Source: Eledone cirrhosa
Taxonomy: Eukaryota
Length of the DNA stretch: 64,000 nt
Assembly: GCA_964016885.1 (NCBI GenBank)
Contig: CAXHJY010001371.1
Location: forward strand, 1-64,000
Direction: 5' to 3'
Each line of letters starts with the position of its first letter. The first letter of the stretch is position 1. The notes under the pieces are model-generated. The model did no database searches and was not told the origin of the DNA. It was given only the letters and a program-made list of their open reading frames with translations. The translations under genes and the position numbers were made by a program. Shown piece after piece: positions 1,451 to 60,576 of the stretch.

Positions 1451-1536
1451 GTAGGAGGTGAGTTTTATTGTAGTACAATAAAGCAATGCAGATATCGGAT
1501 AAGAAGCACTCTACAGTTTGTGGGACTGGAGTATGC

Positions 1537-2538
1537 ATAATATAAGATCAAAAGATGGTTAAAGGAGTTCAATATATTTTATTATGCGCATTTCAAAAAC
1601 AAACATCATCAAACAATAATATTTGTGTTTTCATCAGATAAAACAGGAGAACATGATATGAAGGCTAAAAAAAACACTTGTTGATAGTGCAGTTTTAAAT
1701 CAAACATATGAAAAGTGGTTTTAGATTGATGTGTGATATTGGGAAAAATATTTTATTTAGAGAGGGGGGGAGAGCAAGGGATGAAAAGGGAAGGAGATGA
1801 GAGGGAGAGAGATGGGTGATAGAGAGAAAGAGATAGTTTTTATAACTGAGAGGAGATATATTTTATATAGAGGGGTTGAAAACCGTTGGAAGATACTGTA
1901 TAAATTAAAAATTTTGAAAATTAACGAAGGGAGGATATGTGCGAGGAAAAAATATTATATTTAGGGAGGGGTGGGGGTGGAAAGGATGAAAAAAAGGGAG
2001 GAGATGAGAGTGAAGGTGGAAAGGGAGAGATGGGTGATAGAGAGAAAGAGATAGTTTTTATAACTGAGAAAAAGATATAATGCTTTAATATAGAGAGGTT
2101 GGGAACCGTTGGAAGATAATGTATAAATTAAAGGAATTTGAAAATTAACGAAGGGAAATTATGTATGAAGATAGAGAGAAAAAAAAATAATAATTGTGGG
2201 TGAATATTCTAACGTCAAAAGAAGAAATGTAGGAATTTTAAAATTAGCAAAGAGAAAAAGTTTATGTGTAGAAGGATTTGAGAAGAATAATGTGAAGTTA
2301 AAGTTTGTATATTGAATTCATATGTATTAATAATGAGTTCGTTGATGGGGAGAAAAAAATAATAATAAATTAAGGATGAAATTGAGATTAAAAAGATTAT
2401 GATAGAGAGAAAAAGTAATAATGATTGCGGATGAATACTCAAAATGTCAAAAACAAATGTTATTGTTTTACGAGGAGATAGAAAGAGGGTGATGAGTTAA
2501 AACGGGTATTATAGAGTGTATAATGCCCTTTAAAGTAA
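1537..2538 (-). repeat. Inverted copy of the PLE-1 3' UTR (pairs with 5255-6249)
   Basis: Ends match as reverse complements (ataatataagatcaaaag / cttttgatcttatattat; taatgccctttaaagtaa / ttactttaaagggcatta), with a few substitutions and indels inside. Confidence 0.95.
1575..1645 (-). ncRNA. Type I hammerhead ribozyme, mirror copy in the PLE-1 inverted arm
   Basis: Reverse complement of 6141-6211. Confidence 0.82.
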
Positions 2539-2539
2539 C

Positions 2540-56309: not shown

Positions 56310-56982
56310 ATATATGTATATATATATATATATATGTATAGATGTATGTATATATATATATATATATATATATATATATATATATATATATATATATATA
56401 TATATATATATATATATATATATATATATATATGTAAATATATATACATATATATATATACATCTATATATACATATATATATATATATACATATATATA
56501 TATATATACATATATATATATATATATACATATATATATATACATATATATATATATATATATATATACATATATATATATATATATACATATATATATA
56601 TATATACATATATATATATACATATACATATATGTATATATATATATATGTATATAATATATATGTATATATATATATATATATATATGTATATATATAT
56701 ATATATGTATAGATATATGTATATATATATATATATGTATATATATATATATATATATATATGTAAATATATATACATATATATATATACATCTATATAT
56801 ACATATATATATATATATACATATATATATATATATATATACATATATATATATATATACATATATATATACATATATATATATACATATATATATATAT
56901 ATACATATATATATATATATATATATATATATATATACATATATATTTATACATATATATATACATATATATATATATACAT
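56310..56982. repeat. Compound TA array with two polarity-flip junctions
   Basis: gtatagat..gtaaatatatatacat..catctat occurs twice. Confidence 0.93.
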
Positions 56983-59900
56983 TATGTAGATAAATCTACC
57001 AAGAGTTTACGGTAGTGTCCAATCCGTATGAAGAACTCAATGTATTCCGGATATCATGGAAAGAAGAGATGTAATGAAAAATCACTTTCGGTGAAAGATA
57101 AACGGTATACAGAGTCAAGATAAAATATTAAACAAATAATGAATAAACAATTCCTTATATTAAACAAAAAAAGTTCATTATTTAACGATCGTTTCTAGGA
57201 TATATATGTGTTAGAATTGGCATGCATATTCAACAGATCTATGTACAAAATTATACAAAATTATACAAATTATCAAGATTAAATATACATACCAACACAT
57301 ATATACGCCGTCTTCAGAAATAATGAAGTATATTTATTGATAATAACAACAATTCAAAATTTCAGGTCCGTTTGGGAACAAAATTGACCAATGAAAACAC
57401 AAAGGGTTAAATGCAGTTCGGTGTGTGTATATACATGTAAAACCCTTACACATATTTTACAAAAATGTATGTATAATTTGTATACGCATACTAAAAGGAT
57501 GGATGCAAATACAAAATTTCAAGGTTAATGTCTCTGTAAGTTTATAATGCACAGATAAGATGCGTATTGACACAAGTATGAAATTAAGTATATAAATATA
57601 TTTTTTCATACTCACACATATCCGTACAATCACACATACACGCGCGTATATGCATAAATATACACATAACCACGAACATACAAACACACACACACCCCCA
57701 CTCACATTTATATATGTGGATATAAAATCATAAGCACATGGATATTAATTCACTCACATAAAACACTGGCACACACATTTTTAGATCAAGATACAGAAAT
57801 TAGGTGGGAGGGGGGGGGAGAGGTCAGTATTCAACGGTCTGAGCAGACTGCCTAATATAGATGTATCTATAAACTAAGAAAATAAAAAAATAAAAAAATA
57901 AAAAATAATAAATAAACATTAAAGAGGAAAGAATAGAAAGAAAAAAGAAACAAGAAAAAAGAAAAAAGAAATATATCAAGAAAATATATATATATATATA
58001 TATATATATATATATATATATATATATATATATACACATACAAATATATATATACATATACACACACATATATATATAATATACATATATATACACATAG
58101 ACACACACACACACATACATAAATATACACACATATACAAACACATACATACATATACACACATCCACACTAAGAACATACATACACACACATATATAAA
58201 CATATACATATACACACATACATACATATACACATATACATACAAATACACATATATATATATATATATATATATATATATATATATATATATATACATA
58301 TATATGTATATACACGTACATATACACACACATATACATATAATCACACATACTATATAGACACACATATATATAACCACACACATACATGCACATATAC
58401 AACACTTACATACTAATATACATACAGATATACACATACATAGCTATATATACACACAAATATATACAGACTTACATATATACATACAGACAAATACTTA
58501 CGCATCTATATATCGGTATATACATACAAACACCACTACACTATCACACAACTTAGAAATACAAAGAGAAAGGTATATACCTATACACACATACATATAC
58601 AAATAGAAAAACATATAGATATATATATATATATATATATATATACACACACATATATATATACATATATATATATAACATATATATATATATATATACA
58701 CATACATATACACATACACACACATACACATACACACACATACATACATGTACACACACATAGAAATATATACGCATACACACATACACACATACATATA
58801 AAGACATACACACACAAACAACTACACGAACATACACATACACATATATAAAGATATATATATACACACACACACACACACAACACATACACACATACAC
58901 ATATATATAAAAAAAATAAATAATAAAGATATATACATATATATATATATATACATATATATATATATATATATATATATACACATACATATATATATAC
59001 ATACACATACATACACACATACATAGACATACATGTACATACATACACGTACATCGATATACATACATATATATATACACACATAGACATATACATACAT
59101 ACACACACAACTTACATACACACATATATATACATGTATATTCATACATAGAATTAGATATATAATCATACATACATATGCACTTACTTATACTCATATA
59201 TACAAATACATACGCATCCATATATGCGTATATACATAAAAACACCACTACAACCTCACCTAACTCAGACATAAAAATAAAAATAAAAAGGCATATGTAT
59301 ATACATATATACACGCATTAATAGAGACATATATATACATACATATATATATATATATATATATATATATACACACATACATTCACATATATATATATAT
59401 AGATACCCACACACACATACACATACAAACACCCACATATACATATATATACACACGTATATATATATATATATACACACGCATAAAAAACAGACATGCA
59501 CATATATATATATTTTTTTACACTTATATATACACATATTATATACACATACACAACCTCACATATACACACATACACATAAGTTATATTATAATAATAA
59601 AAAAATAATATATATATATATATATATATATATATACATACATATATATATATATATACATACATATAAACATATACATACATATATACACACATACGAA
59701 TATAGACATATATTCACACATAGACACCCATATATATATATATATATATATATATATACACACACATACATATACACAGACACATATACACACTCACATA
59801 TATATGTGTGTGCACACACACATATATACACACATACACATATATACACATAAACACATATATGTGCATACATGCACACACACACACATATATCACATAG

Positions 59901-60576
59901 ATACGAAGATAGACATATAAATAGAGAGACATACATATATATACAACACACATACACACACATACATACACACACACATACATATACATATATATATATA
60001 TATATATATATATATTTCTATATATACATATATACATATATATATATATATATACATATATATATATACATACACATATACATACACACATTCACATACA
60101 CATACATATATACATGCATATATACACATATATACATACATACACACACTCATATATACACACACAATCTTACATTCATATTTGCATGCGCATATATGTA
60201 TTTTTATATTCAGATATAAATACCCAAACCTATATAGACACCTACCTACATATATATTCATACATACACGCTTACAAATACAGATGATAATAGTATGGGG
60301 GAAAGGGGGGGTTTGGAGAAGGGGATCATAGTAAATATATGTTTCAAGAAACATAGAATATTTTCCGTATCTTGATCCAATGTATGTTTTTACATATGTG
60401 TTGGTATGTATATTTAATCTTGATAATTTGTATAATTTTGTATAATTTTGTACATAGATCTGTTGAATATGCATGCCAATTCTAACACATATATATCCTA
60501 GAAACGATCGTTAAATAATGAACTTTTTTTGTTTAATATAAGGAATTGTTTATTCATTATTTGTTTAATATTTTAT
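56983..60576 (-). mobile_element. PLE-2b: diverged, non-coding, 5'-truncated copy of the PLE-2 family with a ~183-bp inverted arm
   Basis: 56983-60396 corresponds to the reverse complement of ~17688-20587; 60394-60576 is the inverse of 57120-57302. Confidence 0.9.
57174..57327 (-). ncRNA. Long-stem-II hammerhead of PLE-2b
   Basis: Core, stem I and stem III are identical to 20233-20387. Confidence 0.72.

Follow-up and report, generated by a model that had tools for sequence, protein, structure and literature searches.

Head-to-head Penelope-like element insertions in (TA)n arrays of Eledone cirrhosa and a duplicated hairpin near the end points of their relatives

Penelope-like elements (PLEs) of the Hydra clade (Craig et al. 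2021, PMC8557442) target (TA)n, and their insertions are described as comprising an inverted 5'-truncated copy and a tail of 30 to 40 bp that often stands at one end only; the tail was ascribed to resolution by the endonuclease, and the origin of PLE tails and inverted copies was called open. A Penelope element of Adineta vaga likewise has head-to-head inverted pseudo-long terminal repeats (pseudo-LTRs), one of which bears a 31-bp tail, and self-priming on an antisense template was proposed (Arkhipova et al. 2013, PMC3846280); circular templates have been proposed as well (PMC4209133). In vitro, the Poseidon protein PAc of Anolis cuts and extends both strands from two internal start sites that bound the tail, and it is predicted to be a dimer (Frangieh et al. 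2024, PMC11167929); by the account of that paper, in vitro assays had covered a single full-length PLE protein. In L1, the second strand primes internally on the same RNA (twin priming) or on a second RNA (dual priming), which yields an inverted piece (PMC2837659). These papers are cited here as far as their searched text extends. We analyzed a 64,000-nucleotide stretch of Eledone cirrhosa DNA (assembly GCA_964016885.1, contig CAXHJY010001371.1, positions 1 to 64,000 of the forward strand; hereafter, the window), which harbors four insertions of this kind, designated PLE-1, PLE-2, PLE-2b, and PLE-3.

The structure of the insertions was read from the assembled sequence by self-BLAST with the TA arrays masked and by alignment of the outer ends (Table 1). 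An earlier reading made from the letters alone (the sequence-only reading) had described four inverted pairs with their 3' ends pointing outward into (TA)n, and we confirmed this arrangement; the arms share approximately 1.0 kb in PLE-1, 0.6 kb in PLE-2, 0.19 kb in PLE-2b, and 3.4 kb in PLE-3. In each case a single arm bears a tail (86, 134, 134, and 95 nt in PLE-1, PLE-2, PLE-2b, and PLE-3, respectively), which lies on the short arm in PLE-1, as first described, and on the long arm in the other three. The coordinates first assigned to the tails of PLE-1 and PLE-3 stand, whereas those of PLE-2 and PLE-2b are 134 nt long to the last non-TA base and reach the earlier figure of 137 only when the next ATA is counted. 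Both earlier observations on this pair, namely, a shared tail (0 differences over 138 aligned nt) and tail-less ends at the same base, were reproduced. PLE-2b has no open reading frame (ORF), and its arms overlap by 4 to 6 nt at the inner junction, while the third piece at the junction of PLE-3 is likely a template jump.

The arms of an insertion differ by 2 substitutions in 985 aligned bases in PLE-1, 1 in 596 in PLE-2, 1 in 186 in PLE-2b, and 3 in 3394 in PLE-3 (0.09 to 0.54%), and PLE-2 differs from PLE-2b at 58 of 805 positions (about 7%) upstream of the tail. At all 38 informative substitutions both PLE-2 arms are alike against PLE-2b, and the short arm of PLE-2 never matches PLE-2b instead. 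These private variants common to both arms indicate that each insertion came from one source. Furthermore, the polarity of the impurities in the flanking TA arrays is the same on either side of each insert, with the exception of a mixed array to the left of PLE-2b (24 versus 13). Thus, the inversion is limited to the insert, and an inversion including the flanks is ruled out. Target-site duplications are unreadable inside TA arrays.

Motifs and by-eye comparison with published sequences assign the window insertions to the endonuclease-bearing PLEs of the Hydra clade. Their ORFs are 42 to 44% identical to the PLE-3 ORF and, set against the searched text and alignment of PMC8557442, share with that clade an RW motif (RWR in PLE-3 and RWT in PLE-1; PLE-2 is truncated in that region), DKT in all three ORFs, a CxCX5C linker, and CxxC and CxH in the endonuclease, with CCHH absent. 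The C-terminal endonuclease domain conserves IVY...YIG/YFG and downstream R, H, E, and N residues, and gave no profile or fold match to the GIY-YIG domain. Hydra elements are described as carrying a canonical hammerhead near the 3' end. Our own pattern scan placed hammerheads in both arms of PLE-1 (46 nt before the tail-less end) and of PLE-3 (55 nt before it) and found no canonical one in PLE-2 or PLE-2b; Rfam at the gathering threshold returned no hammerhead or other match. The ORF of PLE-3 codes for a reverse transcriptase (RT) and a Hydra-type endonuclease; in its AlphaFold model (predicted local distance difference test score, 82) the RT has a telomerase-like fold, the seven top PDB fold matches all being telomerase RTs. 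A Pfam search gave no real match, a PDB sequence search gave none, and neither did a search of viral contigs. Of the 8000 candidates scored in a protein search, 1034 proved to be relatives; the best of those with a name comes from an octopod. All four insertions sit in (TA)n and, like the Hydra insertions described in the text of PMC8557442, combine this target with an inverted 5'-truncated copy and a one-ended tail. The published units are shorter than about 3 kb, with tails of 30 to 40 bp, whereas the window elements have 3' untranslated regions (UTRs) of 1.3 to 3.9 kb and tails of 86 to 134 nt (about 60 nt in relatives). Asn/Lys-rich, low-confidence inserts follow the RT in PLE-3 (44600-44900) and PLE-2 (15680-15990), and they resemble the N-rich inserts of rotifer Penelope elements in the text of PMC3846280.

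Every tail in the window opens with a hairpin (hairpin 1), of the form ACTC/GAGT in PLE-1 and PLE-2 and GCTC/GAGC in PLE-3, and the four tail-less ends lie 4, 4, 4, and 9 nt upstream of it. The long tail of PLE-2 results from a 71-nt loop in this hairpin. Public reads at the 3' end of PLE-3 (a sample sequenced in two runs, a run of another organism, and a restriction site-associated DNA [RAD] run) included PLE-3-family reads that run into TA at 48064, 48071, and 48077 (site 1) and at 48160 and 48166 (site 2), indicating that other copies of the family use both sites and that site 1 spreads over about 14 nt. The fixed tail-less end proposed by the sequence-only reading thus holds to the base for PLE-2 and PLE-2b and only loosely for the PLE-3 family. 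The depths of the RAD run and its 1175 read ends at 48064, which probably reflect one restriction locus and the read length, were left unused.

Relatives were taken from 78 metagenome loci (from the best 80 of 446 matches) and 12 genome-bin loci, 73 families in total, and the hairpin motif was scanned in the 53 of these 90 loci that include the start of an ORF together with sequence upstream of it. The region from the ribozyme to the ATG contains a hairpin in duplicate, GCTC(C/T)-loop-GAGCACT. Of 30 tandem junctions that have a ribozyme upstream, 25 carried both copies, at a spacing of 55 to 83 nt (median, 62); among the other five, three have a more degenerate second copy as judged by eye, one is not a true tandem, and one is single-copy. 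The pattern was derived from the loci on which it was scored; in ORF sequence used as a control, it matched 27 times in 100,582 nt, or 0.062 per 230 nt. A search that made no use of pairing recovered 83 hairpin units, 80 of which form at least three of the four core pairs in the predicted fold; the pairs were counted by script, as a MAFFT alignment of 50 units had misplaced short loops. Compensatory pairs were found in PLE-1 and PLE-2 (A-U), in L053 and L072 (U-A), and at pair 3 in L081 (A-U). The loop ranges from 6 to 71 nt, a variation that suits a single-stranded fold. Besides, TATA or ATAT occurs within 10 nt upstream of the hairpin in 44 of 83 units, compared with 87 of 785 background 10-mers (11%).

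For the ends of the relatives, 32 divergence points were listed and 7 were dropped, each being an inner junction, an internal repeat, or an indel (L017 853, three rows of L041, L043, L049, and L064 2589). The remaining 25 include 19 that lie 0 to 8 nt upstream of a hairpin (7 at hairpin 1 and 12 at hairpin 2; 19 of 23 families), against 9% expected under a crude uniform null and with the 0-to-8-nt interval set after inspection of the data. In these relatives the tailed end lies 0 to 8 nt before the second hairpin, and the tandem unit runs on into the ORF; hence, the repeat unit does not stop where the tail does, and the tail is as long as the hairpins are spaced. Seen from the relatives, the tailed end is probably internal too, and the earlier proposal, in which the end of the RNA primes one complementary DNA (cDNA), is probably incorrect. 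The long tails themselves had been suggested to be undescribed. Tails longer than 30 to 40 nt were indeed not found in the published PLE texts searched, but a one-sided tail had already been described (PMC8557442, PMC3846280), and the length is explained by the hairpin spacing. An origin of the tail as the N terminus of the ORF was rejected: the tail translations are unlike ORF starts, and in relatives the tail falls in the 5' UTR.

Three copies in relatives have further end-point combinations: an insertion consisting of the tail alone (L088 3040-3125), a copy about one unit long that runs from site 2 to site 2 (L038 3009-5575), and a copy of one unit plus the tail (L087 6886-9448). They are consistent with a circular or tandem template. 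A 281-nt noncoding tandem unit that contains a hammerhead and two copies resembling the hairpin (L053 2628-2988, minus strand) is likely a nonautonomous Hydra derivative. The Hydra PLE contigs L079 to L090 lie within assemblies titled as bacterial genome bins, where they are probably contamination from an animal host.

The architecture of these insertions is largely known. In the searched text of the PLE literature and in two supplements, figures excluded, we found no description of the duplicated hairpin from which both ends can be predicted. The published sequence of Hydra-2_Amil (PMC8557442 supplement) has one hairpin copy at its 3' end.

The sequence-only reading had stated a rule of exactly one tail per insertion. 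It holds for all four insertions in the window (P = 0.06 at even odds), which is weak as a rule. Among relatives, nine head-to-head Hydra-type insertions with both outer ends visible were collected, partly by eye, and seven of them bear a single tail (three in L088, two in L082, and one each in L008 and L089); L082 11688-12004, in which both arms stop at the same point, the motif is absent, and the family is unassigned, was excluded. Together with the window, 11 of the 13 insertions have a single tail (P = 0.011 at even odds); 6 of these carry it on the long arm and 3 on the short arm, and in 2 the arms are of about equal length. Two L088 insertions are tailed on the short arm, 10236-10375, whose arms do not overlap, and 10386-11140. 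An absolute law is refuted by two of the nine relatives, so that one tail is a tendency and not a law.

Two priming events fit these insertions best, since a tail on a short or nonoverlapping arm is incompatible with fold-back of one cDNA. We consider two-ended priming on one RNA, upstream of the two hairpin copies, to be the likeliest mechanism, with about an even chance of being correct pending experiment. The PLE protein would cut both strands of the (TA)n target, and each cut end would prime reverse transcription. The hairpin may be the binding site of the protein on the RNA, a tandem or circular transcript on which each hairpin would hold one protein, and the TA-like bases upstream of the hairpin may anneal to the target. 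Priming at hairpin 2 would yield an end that includes the tail, priming at hairpin 1 would yield one that omits it, and the two cDNAs would halt at variable points and be joined head to head at their truncated ends, the tail length being equal to the hairpin spacing. The excess of one-tail insertions would follow if both sites on a single RNA were occupied. That such a two-site origin is built in, with two hairpins about 60 nt apart and two bound proteins each priming from one cut strand, is a more tentative proposal, which we think somewhat doubtful. Two-ended priming as first put forward is thus favored by the short-arm tails and by the both-strand extension reported for Poseidon in the text of PMC11167929, as the likeliest mechanism only.

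Several observations weigh against two-ended priming on one RNA or against the hairpin as its site. Overlapping arms of up to 3.4 kb on one RNA would require strand displacement, and the variants shared by the arms demonstrate a common source locus but not a common RNA molecule. According to the text of PMC11167929, initiation occurs without target homology and the start sites are alike between strands. Two L082 insertions are near-perfect palindromes, as fold-back predicts, and several full-length copies have their 5' ends at hairpins too (L004, L038, L039, L051, L068, and L087), as cutting at the DNA level predicts. The exceptions to one tail are L082 6740-10561, which is tail-less on both arms in a nested, rearranged setting, and L090, with a tail on both arms; besides, seven of the nine insertions in relatives come from one assembly, and the relatives alone give P = 0.09. 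Six of the 25 ends fall outside the hairpin interval (L021, L034, L036, L045, L064, and L076). Twelve of the 83 units are off consensus, with both paired and unpaired variants, so that the motif is conserved mostly as sequence, with about three independent paired changes. Finally, none of the window families showed hairpin 2 behind its tail, the PLE-3 candidate being divergent, and among the reads listed at the PLE-3 3' end none passes the tail into non-TA sequence.

Fold-back of a single product is unlikely but is the closest competitor. A cDNA primed at the tail end would fold on itself and be copied, and the endonuclease would resolve the intermediate by cutting within the element, at the TA-rich site that precedes hairpin 1. 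This would agree with the attribution of the tail to endonuclease resolution in PMC8557442 and with the self-priming inferred from junction palindromes in PMC3846280, as far as the text of each goes, and it would account for the identical arms, the two palindromic L082 insertions, the 5' ends gathered at hairpins, and the 8 of 11 one-tail insertions in which the tailed arm is the longer one or equals the other. It requires, however, that the tailed arm be the longer or equal one, whereas PLE-1 and L088 10386-11140 are tailed on the short arm and the arms of L088 10236-10375 do not overlap; a loop of 6 to 71 nt is also more in keeping with folded RNA than with a site in duplex DNA.

Priming of each target end on its own RNA from the same source locus, at either hairpin, appears improbable; the one-tail excess would then reflect small numbers or asymmetry of the complex. 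Dual priming has been proposed for L1 (PMC2837659), would spare the 3.4-kb overlaps the strand displacement needed on one RNA, and is consistent with the both-tail (L090) and no-tail (L082) cases and with in vitro start sites that are the same on both strands (text of PMC11167929). One tail in 11 of 13 insertions argues against it, as does the match of both PLE-2 arms to one source although family copies differ by about 7%, which would demand a strict cis preference. Rearrangement after insertion, conversion between the arms, or an assembly artifact is very improbable: long TA arrays are hard to assemble and the junctions rest on the assembly, but the arms differ slightly, the junctions are unique, the flank polarity is unbroken, and the same architecture occurs in other assemblies and in the literature.

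Two-ended priming at the hairpins would share with PAc the cutting and extension of both strands, a tail that is the interval between two starts, and a predicted dimer. PAc belongs to another clade, and its starts lie in an AC-rich stem-loop inside the ORF without target homology, whereas the sites identified here precede the ORF and in many cases are TA-like; neither a duplicated motif nor head-to-head products were found in the searched text of PMC11167929. The self-priming proposed for A. vaga is at odds with a tail on the short arm. In L1 the second site is opportunistic and the pieces are usually nonoverlapping, according to the text of PMC2837659, whereas here a motif sets both sites, and each of the four window insertions has overlapping arms, with an overlap of up to 3.4 kb.

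Table 1. Positions of arms, tails, hairpins, and hammerheads of the four insertions in the window
Feature	Position	Strand	Remarks
PLE-1 short inverted arm, tail-bearing	1451..2538	-	3' UTR only; self-BLAST, end alignment
PLE-1 tail, 86 nt	1451..1536	-	end alignment
PLE-1 hairpin 1	1505..1532	-	ACTC/GAGT variant; begins 4 nt past tail-less end point
PLE-1 long arm, tail-less	2539..6249	+	ATG 2540, frameshift near 2560, open frame 2562-4943
PLE-1 long-arm hammerhead	core 6149, predicted cut 6203	+	pattern scan
PLE-2 short inverted arm, tail-less	13883..14482	-	
PLE-2 long arm with tail	14483..20584	+	5'-truncated ORF to 16705; 3' UTR of 3.9 kb with internal TG/TA microsatellite
PLE-2 tail, 134 nt	20451..20584	+	hairpin 1 at 20455-20538, ACTC/GAGT, 71-nt loop
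PLE-3 shorter inverted arm, tail-less	39367..42787	-	C-terminal part of ORF and 3' UTR
PLE-3 third piece at junction	42788..43093	+	additional sense copy of AT-rich 3' UTR
PLE-3 long arm with tail	43094..48167	+	intact 829-aa ORF 43131-45620, then 3' UTR
PLE-3 candidate hairpin 2 (tentative)	43096..43112	+	ACGC/GCGT, 35 nt upstream of ATG; diverges from consensus
PLE-3 long-arm hammerhead	core 47980, predicted cut 48017	+	pattern scan
PLE-3 tail, 95 nt	48073..48167	+	hairpin 1 at 48082-48106, GCTC/GAGC
PLE-2b long arm	56986..60396	-	3' UTR only; tail 56986-57119, same as PLE-2 tail
PLE-2b short arm, tail-less	60391..60576	+	

The window also contains other repetitive sequence. Degenerate (TA)n runs to 13.7 kb (22112-35833 and other arrays), its impurities are strongly polar in 9 of 10 stretches counted (TACA on the plus strand), and 22504-27366 is repeated at 25461-30252. 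Within (TA)n lie a 400-nt island duplicated at 25065-25470 and 27990-28394, with a 54-nt near-perfect palindrome, and a noncoding 1.5-unit direct repeat with a hammerhead (37378-38076, minus strand; 232-nt repeat, 467-nt unit), which looks like a nonautonomous PLE or a retrozyme. Two single-arm fragments were observed: a PLE-like 3' fragment without an inverted arm, whose hammerhead-like core is similar to that of PLE-3 (30246-31136, plus strand), and a fragment, truncated at its 5' end, of another PLE-like element whose C terminus resembles an endonuclease (35834-36953, minus strand). Judged from translations, non-LTR retrotransposons of the apurinic/apyrimidinic (AP)-endonuclease/RT type with frameshifted ORFs occupy 6897-10632 (plus strand) and 51374-56308 (minus strand) in the same TA arrays.

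If the two-site origin is indeed built in, two-ended priming would be the programmed insertion route, and one cis element would account for tails, fixed ends, and head-to-head inversions alike. With both end points predictable from a short conserved motif, the origin of tails and inversions becomes testable by a few direct mutations, for which the intact, young ORF of PLE-3 is suited to assays, and the hairpin motif may serve curators of Hydra elements as a boundary rule.

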